Made by a program: the position numbers and the translations under genes. Under the pieces are notes generated by a model that saw only the letters and a program-made list of their open reading frames with translations, was not told the origin of the DNA and did not search any database. Positions 28,620 through 33,190 of a stretch of 53,109 nucleotides of DNA are shown here, in pieces; the stretch's first letter is position 1; each line of letters starts with the position of its first letter. This DNA is from Corallococcus coralloides (GTDB taxonomy: Bacteria > Myxococcota > Myxococcia > Myxococcales > Myxococcaceae), in assembly GCA_013116665.1 (NCBI GenBank), contig JABFJY010000032.1:1-53109 (forward strand), given 5' to 3'.

Positions 28620-29396
28620 ATGAATCTCCTGAAGTCGGGTGGGTGGGTGGTGCTGGTGGCGTTGCTCCACGCGAGCGGCGCGGCGGCGCAGATCGTCAAC
28701 GTGCAGGCGCTCTTCGACGAGAAGGCGGAGCCGGGGCCGGCCGCTGCCATCGAACTCGGGGGCGACTGGCGCACGGGCAGCACGGAGCTGTTCGCCATCC
28801 GGGGCTCGCTGGTGGGCCAGCTGCGCTCCGAGCGAGACGTCTGGCTGGGCGTCATCCGGGGTGAATATTCGTTCGCCAGCGGCGAGCGCATCGTCAGCCA
28901 GGTGCTGGAGCACGTGCGCTACCGGCGAAAGTTCACGGACACGGTGTCGGGCGAGGTCTTCGCGCAGCACGAATACAACGAGTTCCGCCGGCTCCAGTTC
29001 CGGGCCCTGCTGGGCGCGGGTCCGCGCTTCATCCTGCTCAATGAGGCCCGCTTGGGGCTCACCTTCGGGGTGGCGCTGATGCTGGAGTACGAGCGGCTGC
29101 GCAAGGACGGCGAGCCGGACGCGGGGGACCGCTACATGGATCCGCGAGTCTCCAGCTATCTGCTGGCCCGGGTGAAGCTGATGGAGAACATCGACCTCGT
29201 GGAGACGGTCTACTTCCAGCCGCGAGTCACCCGCCCCTCCGACCTGCGCGTGCTGAACGAGACGATCTTCGCGGTGACGCCCAATCCCCGCGTCACGGTG
29301 GGCATCGGCTTCAACCTCACCTACGACAGCGCACCGCCCGCGACGGTGCCGCCCCTGGACACGCAGCTGCGCACCACGGTGGGAGTGAAGTTTTGA
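28620..29396 (+). CDS. Secreted outer-membrane beta-barrel-like protein (DUF481-like)
   Basis: Signal peptide MNLLKSGGWVVLVALLHASGAAAQ. Alternating amphipathic beta strands. Ends in an aromatic residue (VGVKF). Confidence 0.55.
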   Translation: MNLLKSGGWVVLVALLHASGAAAQIVNVQALFDEKAEPGPAAAIELGGDWRTGSTELFAIRGSLVGQLRSERDVWLGVIRGEYSFASGERIVSQVLEHVRYRRKFTDTVSGEVFAQHEYNEFRRLQFRALLGAGPRFILLNEARLGLTFGVALMLEYERLRKDGEPDAGDRYMDPRVSSYLLARVKLMENIDLVETVYFQPRVTRPSDLRVLNETIFAVTPNPRVTVGIGFNLTYDSAPPATVPPLDTQLRTTVGVKF

Positions 29397-29699
29397 GTGG
29401 GCGGCAAGCAGCGCGTTGACACATCGGGCGCGCAAACAAGGCGCGGGAGGACGCATCTCCTCCGTCGACGACGCATCCACTGTCACAGCGCGAGAATTGT
29501 TCTTGGGGCACTGGCCCCCAAGGCCCCGCGCAGCAAGCCACCGCAGCGCCTCGTGCGCCGTGTCCCGACAAACGTCATAGAGACGCGTCAGCTTCGCTTT
29601 CCCCATCCCCATCCCCTCCTCGTCCCAGCATGGCCATCCAACCACGGGGGTCTGACATGAGCGCGAAGGCCCACCGTCCGCATCGTCCGTCGGCCAGCG

Positions 29700-30140
29700 C
29701 GGCCCCCGGGCCTCATGTGTCTGAAACCTGTCCGACTGTCGGACAGGTTTTGAGGGAACCCGTCCCAGGCGGGTGCGTCTGTCCGAGTCCATCCCTGGAG
29801 TTCACGCACGCATGACATTGCTCGACCGACGGCCCAGCGCGACCTCGGACCGCATGCTTCGAAAAGCTGTCCGGCTGTCGGACAGGTTTTGAGCGAACCG
29901 GACCCGGGCGGCCCCTCTCCCCGTGTCACGACCTTGCGCTCGCGCACGCATGACGTCGCTGACCTGGTGGACTGGCGTGGCCTCGGACTGCTTGCCGCGA
30001 ATCTTGTCCGACTGTCGGACAGGTTCTGAGCGTTCCGGGCCCGACGTGCCCTCCGCTCCTGCATCCAGTCGAGCCACATCGCTGCACCCTCGAAGGCGGA
30101 CCTTGTCGGCGAACTCCTGGCGGCCCGCTTGAGGGTAGGC
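29700..30140. repeat. About 3.1 tandem copies of a ~137-bp intergenic unit, each containing the perfect palindrome TGTCCGAC-N-GTCGGACA followed by GGTTTTGAGCGAACC
   Basis: Palindromes at 29729-29745, 29868-29884 (one mismatch in the left arm) and 30005-30021. Shared CGCACGCATGAC and CCTCGGAC blocks lie between copies. Lies between the DUF481 gene and proC. Confidence 0.85.
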
Positions 30141-30147
30141 TCTAGCG

Positions 30148-30999
30148 ATGGCGTCCCATTCCATCTCTGCTCCCGTAGTCCTCCTGGGAGGCGGCAAGAT
30201 CGCTGAAGCGCTCATCCTGGGACTGTTGCGCTCCGGCCACGTGCGTCCTTCGGACCTTCGCGTCACGGTGCGCCGGCCCGAGCGCGGAGAGGAGCTGCGC
30301 TCCCGGCACGGCGTGAACGTCCTCATGGACAACGCGCAGGCGGTGCTGGGCGCGGGGGTGATCCTGCTCGCGGTGCGGCAGGCGCAATTGCGCGAGCTGA
30401 TGGAGGTCATCTCGCCGGCTCTGGAACAGGGGCAGACCGTGGTGTCGCTGTCCGCAGACGTGCGCCTTGCGCAGTTGGAAGCGGCGCTGCCCTCCTGCGT
30501 CTCCGTCATCCGCGCCCTGCCACATACGCCCGTGCGCGTGGGAGCGGGCGTGACGCCACTGACGGCCGGGACCCGGGCAACGGAGACCTCAAGGCTGGCC
30601 ACCGAGTCCGTCTTCGCGGCGACGGGACGGCCCATGTGGATGACCGAGGAGGCGCTCACGGTCTGCACGGGGGTGTGCGGCACGGGCCCCGCTTATGTCT
30701 TCCGCTTCGTGGAGACCCTGGCCCAGGCCGCGATGGCGCACGGGATGGACGCGGCGGAAGCGGAGGCGCTCGCCAGGGAAACGCTCATTGGCGCGGCGAA
30801 GCTGCTGGCCGAACCCGGCGCCACCACCCCTCGCCTCATCACGGAGATCGCGACCCCGGGAGGCATCACCGAGGCAGGGCTGAAGGCGATGGACTCCCAC
30901 GGTCTGCCTCGCGTCGTGGGCGAAGCAGTCTCCGTCGCCATCCAGCGAACCCGCGAGCGCGCGGACGCGAACGCCGCGGCCTACAGCACGCCAAAGTGA
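30148..30999 (+). CDS. proC: Pyrroline-5-carboxylate reductase
   Basis: 283 aa. N-terminal NADP motif LLGGGKIAEALILGL. ProC C-terminal dimerization region TPGGITEAGL. Confidence 0.85.
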   Translation: MASHSISAPVVLLGGGKIAEALILGLLRSGHVRPSDLRVTVRRPERGEELRSRHGVNVLMDNAQAVLGAGVILLAVRQAQLRELMEVISPALEQGQTVVSLSADVRLAQLEAALPSCVSVIRALPHTPVRVGAGVTPLTAGTRATETSRLATESVFAATGRPMWMTEEALTVCTGVCGTGPAYVFRFVETLAQAAMAHGMDAAEAEALARETLIGAAKLLAEPGATTPRLITEIATPGGITEAGLKAMDSHGLPRVVGEAVSVAIQRTRERADANAAAYSTPK

Positions 31000-31664
31000 C
31001 GCTTGAGCCCCCGCTGGCCTCCAGGCGTCACGATGAGGCCGCGTGAGTCGGGCTGACGCTCCACCCATCCCAATGCGAACACCCGGGCCGCGAGCGCCGC
31101 GCCCAGCGCCCCCGCGAGGTGATCGCGCCGCTCACTCCAGTCCAGGCACCGGTGGGCGAAGTGGCGCCGCTGTTCGCGCACGGGCGCCAGGTCGATGCCG
31201 AAGTCCTGGAACCACGCCTCGCCGCTCGGGGTGAGCGCGAACGCGCGCTTGCGAAGGGACAGGTGCCCGGCCCGCAGGAGCGCGTCGGTGATGCCCATGC
31301 CCAATCTGCCCGCCAGATGGTCGTAGCAGTAGCGCGCGGCCCTCAGGGGCTCCGGAGTCGCTGACGCTCGGGGGCCCCGGACCGCCACGGTCATCAGCGC
31401 CTCCACCATCCGCGCCACGGTGGGCGTGGCGATCCGGAACACCTTGTTGCGCCCCTGACGGGTGGCGCGGACCAGCCGGGCCTGCTCCAACCGCTGGAGG
31501 TGCGCGGTCGCCGTCGCGGGGCTGACGCCCGTACCGAACGCGAGCTCCTTCGCGACGAGCGCCCGGCCCTCCATGAGCAACTCCAGCATCCGGATCCGCG
31601 TGGCATCCCCCACGGCCGTGGCCAGCGTCGCGAGGTCCGGCCCTGCATTCATCGTTCGGTCCAT
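30981..31664 (-). CDS. ArsR/SmtB-like winged-helix transcriptional regulator with C-terminal extension
   Basis: ORF 30981..31928, trimmed to MDRTMNAG at 31664. HTH region IRMLELLMEGRALVAKELAFGTGVSPATATAHLQRLEQARLV. Divergent from the P450 gene. Confidence 0.65.
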   Translation of the reverse strand: MDRTMNAGPDLATLATAVGDATRIRMLELLMEGRALVAKELAFGTGVSPATATAHLQRLEQARLVRATRQGRNKVFRIATPTVARMVEALMTVAVRGPRASATPEPLRAARYCYDHLAGRLGMGITDALLRAGHLSLRKRAFALTPSGEAWFQDFGIDLAPVREQRRHFAHRCLDWSERRDHLAGALGAALAARVFALGWVERQPDSRGLIVTPGGQRGLKRHFGVL

Positions 31665-31727
31665 GACGAACCATTTCCTAGCACACGGACACGGCAACGG
31701 CAGCAGAGTGCCCGGCCACGAGGACCG

Positions 31728-32849
31728 ATGACACCGCCGACCGACCCGTATCAAGCCGTCACCCACCCCGACCCCTACCCCTACTACTCGGAGCTTCGAG
31801 CCCGGGGCGGCCTGCACCGCGTCCCCGGCTTCGGGCCATGGATCGCGGCGGATGCGGCCACCGTCCGCGCGGTGCTCACGAGCGAGCACTGCCGGGTCCG
31901 GCCACGGTCGGAGCCAGTGCCTCCGCACCTGGCGGGCACCGCCGCGGGGGCCCTCTTTGGACGGCTGGTGCGGATGAACGACGGTGGCCCCTACCCCGCC
32001 GTGAAGCAGACACTTTCAAGTGCGCTGCCGTTGGCGCTGCGCGAGGTCGAAGCGGAGAGCCGCCGCCAGGCGACACGGTTGTTCGCAACGCCCTCGCTGT
32101 CACGGCTGCCGGACGCCGCCCTCCAGCTTCCCGTGTTCGTGCTGGGGTCGCTGCTGGGCTTCCCAGAAGACACGCTGGAGGCGAGCGTGCGGGATGTGGA
32201 TGCCTATGTCCGCTCGGTCGCCGGGTCCCCTGCTGGCAGTGAGGGGGCGGCAAGGCTGCACGAACGCGTGGCGGCCTGCTTCCGGTCCACTGCGAGGACC
32301 GCGTTCACGGCCCGGCTGATGGAAGGCCACGGCCCGGAGGACCTGCTCGTTCCCAACACCGTGGGCCTGCTCACCCAGGCGTATGAAGCGACGGCCGGTC
32401 TTCTGGGCGCGACGCTGCGGGCCTTCGCTCGAATGCCCGAGCTGCGTGAACAGCTCTCACGGGGCACCTGCACCATGGACGACGTGGTCCAGGAAGCAGC
32501 TCGTCACGATTCCCCGGTCCAGAACACACGGCGCTTCACCCATGCCGCCGCGGTCGTCGCGGGTCAGGCGCTGGAAGCCGGTGAGACCGTGGTCGTCGTG
32601 CTCGCCGCCGCGAATCGGGATCCCCTGGAGAATCCCCAGCCCGACGCCTTCCTTCCACGGCGCGCGGGGCGCAAGAGCTTCACCTTCGGCCTGGGCTCGC
32701 ATGCCTGTCCCGGGCCTTTGCTCGCGACGACGATGGCCACGGCGGCGGCGGAGCGAGTGCTCGCGAATGGCCTGGACCTGTCGCCTCTGTCGCGCACCGT
32801 CACCTGGCGTGCCTCCACCAACACCCGCGTCCTGGGAGGACTGGAATGA
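31728..32849 (+). CDS. Cytochrome P450
   Basis: ORF trimmed to MTPPTDPYQ at 31728. Heme-binding loop FTFGLGSHACPG. ExxR-like motif EAARHDSPV. Confidence 0.85.
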   Translation: MTPPTDPYQAVTHPDPYPYYSELRARGGLHRVPGFGPWIAADAATVRAVLTSEHCRVRPRSEPVPPHLAGTAAGALFGRLVRMNDGGPYPAVKQTLSSALPLALREVEAESRRQATRLFATPSLSRLPDAALQLPVFVLGSLLGFPEDTLEASVRDVDAYVRSVAGSPAGSEGAARLHERVAACFRSTARTAFTARLMEGHGPEDLLVPNTVGLLTQAYEATAGLLGATLRAFARMPELREQLSRGTCTMDDVVQEAARHDSPVQNTRRFTHAAAVVAGQALEAGETVVVVLAAANRDPLENPQPDAFLPRRAGRKSFTFGLGSHACPGPLLATTMATAAAERVLANGLDLSPLSRTVTWRASTNTRVLGGLE

Positions 32850-33190
32850 TTGCTGTCATCTTCGAGGTCCGGGCACACGAGTCGCATCGGCAGCGGTACC
32901 TGGACCTCGCCGCGGAGCTGCGGCCCCTGCTGGCGGACATCGACGGCTTCATCTCCATCGAGCGGTTCCAGAGCCTCAGCGAACCGGGGAAGCTGCTGTC
33001 CCTGTCCTACTGGCGAGACGAGGCAGCGGTGGCGGAATGGCGGCGACTGGAGGCCCACCGTGAAGCCCAGCGCGAAGGCCGGGGAGGCGTGTTCAGCGAC
33101 TACCGACTGCGGGTGGCGCACGTCGTGAGGGACTACGGCTTGACGGACCGGGCGGCCGTGCCCGCTGACAGTCGCACCGTGCACGGCTGA
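32846..33190 (+). CDS. ABM-domain monooxygenase-like protein
   Basis: 114 aa. ATGA overlap with the P450 stop. MIAVIFEVRAHESHRQRYLDLAAEL...SLSYWRDEAAVAEWRRLEAH is typical of ABM. Confidence 0.7.
   Translation: MIAVIFEVRAHESHRQRYLDLAAELRPLLADIDGFISIERFQSLSEPGKLLSLSYWRDEAAVAEWRRLEAHREAQREGRGGVFSDYRLRVAHVVRDYGLTDRAAVPADSRTVHG

Follow-up and report, generated by a model that had tools for sequence, protein, structure and literature searches.

Repetitive extragenic palindromes (REP sequences) and bacterial interspersed mosaic elements (BIMEs) of enterobacteria and pseudomonads are short, GC-rich, high-copy palindromes that lie almost entirely outside genes, often at gene 3′ ends, singly or in small arrays with conserved linkers. 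A clade may hold several sister families, and one particular gene lies bracketed between element copies; in REPIN-RAYT systems (RAYT, REP-associated tyrosine transposase), this is a single-copy HUH/Y1 transposase. The operators of FadR-subfamily GntR regulators (E. coli FadR and PdhR, and the multi-site NanR and VanR) are dyad-symmetric sites beside the regulator's own gene. Here, we describe a palindrome that resembles both. It occurs three times between a DUF481 gene and proC in a 53,109-bp stretch of the Corallococcus coralloides genome (assembly GCA_013116665.1, contig JABFJY010000032.1; the whole stretch is referred to as the window), and it belongs to a REP-like, dispersed, and almost exclusively intergenic family of Corallococcus and a few related myxobacteria. 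We rate the members of this family as REP-like palindromes that have an amplified FadR-type regulator, not a transposase, as their constant partner gene. For the window, we favor, with moderate confidence, a joint reading in which a regulator-plus-operator module has decayed, its operator segment has been triplicated, and the palindrome is the operator of the FadR-like protein.

Like REP sequences, the Corallococcus palindromes are high-copy, dispersed, and extragenic and form clusters with conserved linkers. Unlike them, they lack the GTAG/GGAG-type tetranucleotide that gives REP sequences their polarity (the consensus is flanked by AAA / TTT), they are perfect (one central base, no bulge), and many of the sites recur at orthologous positions in different species. 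The bracketed gene differs as well, since it encodes a FadR/GntR-type winged helix-turn-helix (wHTH) regulator with at least 13 copies per genome. With the FadR-subfamily operators, the palindrome shares a dyad with a GT-N3-AC core (CTGT-CCG-ACAG here, CTGGT-CCG-ACCAG in the FadR box) that adjoins a GntR-family gene in 26 of 26 modules described below. The proteins share the wHTH and an all-helical FCD-like domain, and some members of the subfamily use repeated or paired sites. However, the site is longer (25–27 bp versus ~17 bp), invariant at roughly 100 places per genome, and mostly outside promoters, and amplification has produced many near-identical, stand-alone copies of the regulator, all with a disordered and variable tail of ~170 residues.

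Repeats resembling miniature inverted-repeat transposable elements (MITEs; e.g., ERIC/IRU, Neisseria Correia, and Stenotrophomonas SMAG) are likewise intergenic, hairpin-capable elements of 70–180 bp with subfamilies, which lie near gene ends and lengthen their host intergenic regions. In contrast, only the central 25 bp are conserved across subfamilies here, there are no clear terminal inverted repeats apart from the core, and there is no convincing target-site duplication, the sole candidate being a 4-bp TGAG at the borders of the window module. ParB-parS, Noc-NBS, and MatP-matS also combine tens to hundreds of near-identical palindromic sites with one dimeric DNA-binding protein, but their sites occur in coding and noncoding DNA alike and are not tandemly amplified, and a single-copy gene, not flanked by sites on both sides, encodes the protein. 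We found no description of the palindrome family in the literature searched, which covered Corallococcus, RAYT in myxobacteria, and myxobacterial repeats, including the repetitive sequence of M. xanthus.

Palindromic tandem units in the DUF481-proC gap

The intergenic gap spans 751 bp, from the end of the DUF481 gene at 29396 to the start of the pyrroline-5-carboxylate reductase gene (proC) at 30148. It holds three copies of TGTCCG[A/G]CTGTCGGACA, which start at 29729, 29868, and 30005 and are thus spaced by 139 bp and 137 bp. The 17-mer used as the search core (TGTCCGACNGTCGGACA) is exact at 29729–29745 and 30005–30021 (TGTCCGACTGTCGGACA) and carries one mismatch at 29868–29884 (TGTCCGGCTGTCGGACA), and all three copies in the window are in this gap. 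The expected number of chance occurrences is 0.01 on average, and three or more copies were seen in none of 100 dinucleotide-preserving shuffles of the whole window. An earlier interpretation of this DNA from its letters alone (the sequence-only reading) had noted three diverged palindrome-bearing repeats at 137–139 bp, which is borne out, as the flanks are repeated too. The arms are longer than the 8 bp it reported, and the full motif is a perfect palindrome of 25–27 bp, AAACCTGTCCGAC-W-GTCGGACAGGTTT. Copy 1 (29724–29750, AAACCTGTCCGAC-T-GTCGGACAGGTTT) has perfect 13-nt arms; copy 2 (29863–29889, AAAGCTGTCCGGC-T-GTCGGACAGGTTT) has one A-to-G change in the 17-nt core and one change in an outer arm; and copy 3 (30000–30026, AATCTTGTCCGAC-T-GTCGGACAGGTTC) has a perfect 17-nt core and degraded outer arm positions. 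No strand is assigned to any of the three. The same reading had judged the palindrome too tight for an RNA hairpin, and this is wrong: with the innermost pair opened, it forms a stem of 12–13 bp with a 3-nt loop (RNA −19.9 kcal/mol, DNA −13.2 kcal/mol, z ~ −6), and folding is strong for either strand (−18.5 to −19.9 kcal/mol, z ~ −5 to −6).

The palindromes are embedded in an array of three ~138-bp tandem units on the minus strand (29683–30095; units at 29683–29821, 29822–29958, and 29959–~30095). Each unit consists of a palindrome and a linker with ACGTCATGCGTGCGCG and CGGACAGAGG.GCCCGCC.GGG.CCGGTT.CCTC blocks. Units 1 and 2 are 76% identical across 90 nt, the three copies are 82–86% identical across the 44 nt around the palindrome, and when all three units are aligned, columns are on average 74% identical. 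The conservation of the flanks is real but modest, and Tandem Repeats Finder did not call the array in the window because the copies are too diverged. Elsewhere, we found 12 homologous units of the window type in eight loci, upstream of FadR-like genes (including L063, L121, L123, and L125); locus L063 has a five-copy array at −125, −264, −404, −540, and −677 from such a gene.

Other readings of the units were tried and set aside. Open reading frames antisense to the array (e.g., 29588–30079) have no Pfam match and merely read through the repeats, as the sequence-only reading had also concluded. That reading had proposed an Rfam scan; there was no match at the gathering score in the whole window or in 17 related loci, and a permissive scan of 29350–30200 returned only hits with E > 4. 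Neither sigma-70 promoters nor terminators were found by a consensus scan of 29300–30300. When whole units were folded as RNA, only unit 1 on the plus strand beat shuffled sequences (z = −2.3), driven by the palindrome, and units 2 and 3 were no better than shuffles. The small RNA (sRNA) reading was dropped; of the earlier suggestion of a tandemly amplified, sRNA-like noncoding element, the small amplified noncoding element stands. Tandem paralogs of the Pxr sRNA were rejected because the genomic context is different and Rfam gives no support. CRISPR was rejected, in agreement with the sequence-only reading, because the sequence between the palindromes is itself repeated and the arrays are tiny (two to eight copies) and dispersed over dozens of loci per genome.

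A decayed regulator gene next to the array

Between the DUF481 gene and the array lies the remnant of a FadR/GntR-family regulator gene (29457–29612, minus strand, ~52 codons), a pseudogene that is unannotated, divergent from proC, and missed by the sequence-only reading. It was identified by tblastn (49% identity over 53 aa, E = 4e-7) and by alignment to an intact ortholog (L123) and a paralog (L121). The remnant keeps its ATG at 29612 (with a second ATG at 29606), has lost ~29 codons after codon 4 through an 87-bp deletion, and matches wHTH residues 29–81 of the intact paralog, beyond which everything is lost. The leader/promoter segment of the module (29613–29723, minus strand) carries a ribosome-binding site (GGAGG) immediately 5′ of the ATG and a block, CATGTCAGACCCCCGTGGTTGGATGGCCATGCTGGGACGAGGAGG (~29615–29659), that is 90–99% conserved among modules. 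The center of palindrome copy 1 (29737) is 125 bp upstream of the remnant ATG, and in most intact modules this distance is 124 to 129 bp. Positions 29505–29785 of the window are 75–88% identical to ~19 loci, where they form the end of a ~1-kb repeat that has at least ten copies among the palindrome loci of one genome. This ~1-kb repeat is a gene on the strand opposite proC, and its product has a GntR wHTH (PF00392, E = 3e-10).

The orthologous loci of other strains show the module in different states. In C. coralloides DSM 2259, the order is p450, ArsR-type helix-turn-helix (HTH) gene, proC, regulator, and DUF481, with an intact regulator of 425 aa and three palindromes. Corallococcus sp. EGB has an intact regulator between DUF481 and proC, one palindrome, and an additional seven-copy array with a period of ~50 bp. 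In a close relative (proC 95% identical), the regulator is deleted as in the window and two palindromes are present, and in C. praedator the DUF481 stop codon and the proC ATG are separated by only 16 bp, with no regulator gene and no palindrome. The number of palindromes at this orthologous locus thus ranges from zero to eight (0, 2, 3, or 8), with different spacings. Given the empty C. praedator locus and the filled loci, the module looks like an insertion between formerly adjacent genes that later decayed in the lineage of the window. The window holds a decayed module, the upstream segment of which (the palindrome and part of the leader) is tandemly triplicated into the ~138-bp units; tandem multiplication of the upstream segment also occurs in intact modules elsewhere.

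The one comparison of an empty with a filled site, C. praedator versus the window and DSM 2259, concerns the whole module. At the module borders, TGAG stands both after the stop codon of DUF481 (29390–29400) and before a conserved 17-bp stretch upstream of proC (30118–30135). As a candidate 4-bp duplication, on comparison with L127:3476–3500, L123:4290–4300, and the empty site of C. praedator, it is too short to convince. At solo copies of the palindrome, there are indels directly beside the core without a clear target duplication.

An expanded family of FadR-like regulators

The closest PDB sequence matches of the regulator are PdhR and FadR. Its AlphaFold model has a confident wHTH and helical domain (residues 1–235), followed by a disordered tail (residues 240–405), and matches only FadR-subfamily regulators (NanR, FadR, McbR, VanR, and DhdR). 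Of 252 matches to the protein, the best 120 are all from Corallococcus, and a metagenome scan confirmed no relatives; the family has expanded specifically in Corallococcus. C. exercitus SDU142 has at least 13 distinct paralogs. Among paralogs, residues 1–240 are 80–88% conserved, with an almost invariant wHTH, and the tail is ~45% conserved. The median dN/dS (ratio of nonsynonymous to synonymous substitution rates) is 0.31 at a dS of 0.32, and the paralogs are therefore working genes.

Two further observations concern these proteins. From residue ~240 to the end, the proteins P0001–P0120 have a tail of ~100–190 residues that is ~45% conserved and predicted to be disordered. In many paralogs, LSDCRTG-like residues within it are simply a translation of the 3′ palindrome, and annotation in GC-rich DNA may have extended the tail too far. 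Moreover, two paralogs of C. coralloides DSM 2259 (L121:3001–3190 and L123:3001–3190) are near-identical across the leader and the initial ~190 nt of the coding sequence and diverged elsewhere, which suggests gene conversion between them.

Genes of this family and the palindrome are linked. In all 21 modules selected by palindrome, the center of a palindrome is found 95–131 bp 5′ of the ATG, in most cases at −124 to −129. In the reverse test, all four paralogs fetched by protein sequence alone also carry an upstream palindrome, often as an array. With one more module, in the proC ortholog locus L126, the palindrome is at −95 to −131 in 26 of 26 modules. Fourteen of the 26 have a second palindrome-like site (up to three mismatches, mostly degraded) at +897 to +1311, and in these the gene is therefore bracketed. 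About one-fifth of the palindrome copies are within this recurrent ~1–1.4-kb module. When the 762 called proteins were clustered, the FadR-like family was the sole consistently adjacent neighbor; the modules stand alone, and their neighboring genes are unrelated.

A dispersed intergenic palindrome family

We scanned one genome per species with TGTCCGNCNGTCGGACAGGTT, so that loci were found by exact core match. At least 120 loci carry the palindrome, nearly all in Corallococcus (exercitus, coralloides, interemptor, carmarthensis, and others); among the matches listed, a few are from Archangium, Hyalangium, and myxobacterial metagenome-assembled genomes (MAGs). A scan of viral contigs found none, and a scan of metagenome DNA found the palindrome on two short contigs. 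Core palindromes were counted in 8-kb loci around the matches (n = 171), which gives lower bounds per genome of at least 54 copies in C. exercitus SDU142 and at least 33 in C. coralloides KYC2213; as a rough estimate, there are ~100 copies per Corallococcus genome. Positions −12 to +12 each hold ~2 bits of information, background is reached beyond ±13, and the central base (A or T) is the sole source of orientation. Array periods in the family are ~50, 69–73, 83, and 134–144 bp. Only ~20 other copies share the flanks of the window copies; frequent copies elsewhere without conserved flanks were what the sequence-only reading had named as telling against its own interpretation, and this is largely the situation found.

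Genes were called with our own codon-usage gene caller, and 160 of the 171 copies (94%) are outside called genes, although 83% of the DNA is coding. By type of gene pair, 72 copies are between tandem, 30 between convergent, and 25 between divergent genes. Intergenic regions with a palindrome are several-fold longer than those without (402 versus 59, 256 versus 15, and 504 versus 201 bp).

A second conserved module adjoins the palindrome in 24 loci. It is a ~100-bp flank, GGTTCGTGCGGTGCGCCGCCGACGGGGAGCCCC...GGGTTCTCACCTTCTCATCC.GGGGACAGGACTTCATGTCCGAGGG, mostly just 3′ of unrelated genes (e.g., L006:1650–1760, L021:5920–6030, L024, L035, L036, L044, L047, L061, L065, L067, and L068), and in some loci it is paired with a conserved ~50-bp flank on the opposite side. 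It has no Rfam match and could represent a small RNA or a longer nonautonomous element. Sister palindromes of like design are at a fixed distance from the main palindrome in a MAG and in Archangium (L020, L028, L030, L079, and L116, ~90 nt away; also L054). One is AAC(T/C)TGT(A/C)CAC-TWA-GTGGACA(A/G)GTT (AACTTGTCCAC-TWA-GTGGACAAGTT), and another, ACTGGTCCGAC-CA-TCGGACCAGT, contains the E. coli FadR-box core CTGGTCCGACC exactly.

The palindrome as a probable operator, and competing explanations

Conservation points to recognition of the palindrome as sequence. Module palindromes are 90–99% conserved versus 50–70% for their flanks, at a paralog dS of ~0.32, and at solo sites that are orthologous across species the 25–27-bp core is intact amid neighboring DNA with numerous indels. 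Where positions ±9 to 12 deviate, they do so on one side only, and compensatory pairs are absent; beyond ±13, pairing does not exceed chance. Constraint is thus at the level of sequence, without compensation, and specific sequence recognition therefore fits better than a generic hairpin. The palindrome contains CTGT-CCG-ACAG, and its core resembles the E. coli FadR probe sequence CTGGTCCGACC (PMC4259882). We propose the FadR-like wHTH, the gene for which adjoins the palindrome in every one of the modules, as the binding partner, and the palindrome is probably the binding site of a FadR-like dimer. The idea of a dimeric DNA-binding-protein site, already put forward by the sequence-only reading, is in this respect a reasonable one.

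The palindrome would then be an operator recognized on double-stranded DNA by the dimeric wHTH of the near-identical paralogs, and within modules this would result in autoregulation. Solo copies, mostly after gene 3′ ends, might serve as additional or decoy binding sites, or else as insulators or hairpins. In the window, where the cis regulator is dead, the relic array may still be bound in trans by other paralogs, and any effect of the array on proC would be incidental.

Several observations weigh against an operator function. No FadR-like gene is near 137 of the 171 copies (80%), and in the palindrome loci of one MAG, at least 13 copies have conserved flanks of ~75 bp and a FadR-like gene is absent. 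Solo copies are distributed in a REP- or terminator-like way that is not typical of operators: between tandem genes, 49 copies are nearer the upstream stop codon versus 23 nearer the downstream start, and 23 convergent intergenic regions carry a palindrome. For copies up to 300 bp 3′ of a gene, the central base on the sense strand is A or T at 61:31 (binomial p = 0.002, with counts that are not independent owing to arrays); relative to genes starting downstream, no such bias was seen (40:33). The palindrome arrays are hypervariable between species, and there would be cross-talk among 15–20 paralogs with a shared operator, an odd arrangement for ordinary regulators. Gene conversion could homogenize palindromes within a genome without selection, and variation of the core is under-sampled because loci were ascertained by exact core match. 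The resemblance to the FadR box is a lead and not a test.

Selfish DNA of the REP or MITE type is the strongest competitor, although we consider it clearly less probable. Here, the palindrome would be a hairpin element mobilized by some transposase (e.g., of the RAYT-type Y1 class, acting on single-stranded hairpins), the FadR-like gene would have inherited its upstream palindrome, and local duplication would have left the window array as junk. The family is indeed high-copy, extragenic, and clustered, in intergenic regions much longer than background; the bias to gene 3′ ends and convergent regions, the 61:31 orientation relative to the upstream gene, and the variation from zero to eight copies at one orthologous locus all agree with this. 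So do the flank subfamilies (including the ~75-bp extended palindrome of the MAG and the ~100-bp flank in 24 loci) and the sister palindromes of the same design that adjoin the main palindrome in other genera. However, tblastn with approximate E. coli YafM and IS200 TnpA queries revealed no Y1/RAYT gene in ~1 Mb of palindrome loci, a weak negative, as a RAYT may be single-copy; the one match, in L080, was in a spurious noncoding frame. The element also lacks the conserved 5′ tetranucleotide, the palindrome is perfect and effectively orientation-less with constraint on sequence rather than on pairing, and the many solo sites that are orthologous between species imply limited recent mobility. 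Furthermore, the link to one regulator family in 26 of 26 modules, with flanking on both sides, is hard to call incidental.

A more speculative extension, which we regard as rather unlikely, would give the FadR-type paralogs the place that RAYT has in REP systems. The paralogs and the palindrome would form a self-propagating regulator-operator module, in which a nuclease-less wHTH family is bracketed by, binds to, and co-amplifies with its own palindrome. Its sites would have colonized ~100 intergenic regions, either as an architectural or insulating network across the genome or as selfish DNA of a new kind.

A bidirectional terminator or RNA-stabilizing hairpin is improbable. The 12–13-bp stem would end or protect mRNAs, and the array would insulate proC and the FadR-like gene from read-through. 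In its favor are the strong hairpins of either strand, the enrichment of sites 3′ of stop codons and between convergent genes (at L003/L119, the site is 6–40 bp 3′ of the stop codon), and an A-run / stem / T-run geometry, clearest in the MAG copies (CAGAAACC...GGTTTTTGAAAA). Of the parts of an intrinsic terminator (a GC-rich stem-loop and a U-tract with five or more U in eight), the stem is present, but the consensus scan of 29300–30300 gave no terminator-like site; the T-run is only 2–4 nt long, not conserved, and lost in some orthologous copies. A structural role also predicts compensation and varied stems, but one exact 25-mer is kept without compensation, and the fixed −125 position before one gene family and the arrays of three to eight copies would be left unexplained.

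Lastly, the sequence-only reading had set the array upstream of proC as a repeated protein-binding site or an sRNA-like element. A locus-specific operator array, or tandem sRNA genes, controlling proC would fit the position of the three sites, which are ~138 bp (~13 helical turns) apart and 135–411 bp away from the proC ATG on its upstream side. This is very unlikely and largely refuted by the same palindrome at the 120 or more unrelated loci, by the variable copy number and spacing at orthologous proC loci and the 16-bp gap of C. praedator, and by the lack of an Rfam family, of promoter- or terminator-like sites, and of unit 2 and 3 folds better than shuffles.

Neighboring features in the window

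Downstream of the array, proC is in a conserved block (30148–33190) with genes for an ArsR-type HTH protein, a P450, and an ABM monooxygenase. Orthologs of this proC occur only in Corallococcus, Pyxidicoccus, and Myxococcaceae MAGs, and the next relatives are ~40% identical and mostly from Actinobacteria. The block looks more like a small specialized-metabolism cluster than housekeeping proline synthesis. At 19637–19853, the window has a 109-bp tandem duplication (2.0 copies, 95% identical) that begins directly after a TAG at ~19651; it carries a GGCCAGGTGGCC-type hairpin and is unrelated to the palindrome family.

Implications for Corallococcus

The annotation of the window changes, in that the array upstream of proC is the relic of a decayed module next to an unannotated pseudogene and not a proC control region. 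More broadly, a genus that is mined for natural products has a lineage-specific repeat family by which intergenic regions are lengthened and destabilized, with zero to eight copies at the same locus. Linked to these repeats is an unusually expanded set of near-identical FadR-type regulators, of which one genome has at least 13. Should the protein bind the palindrome, the family would offer a tractable example of joint amplification of a transcription factor and its site, and a REP-like system without RAYT.
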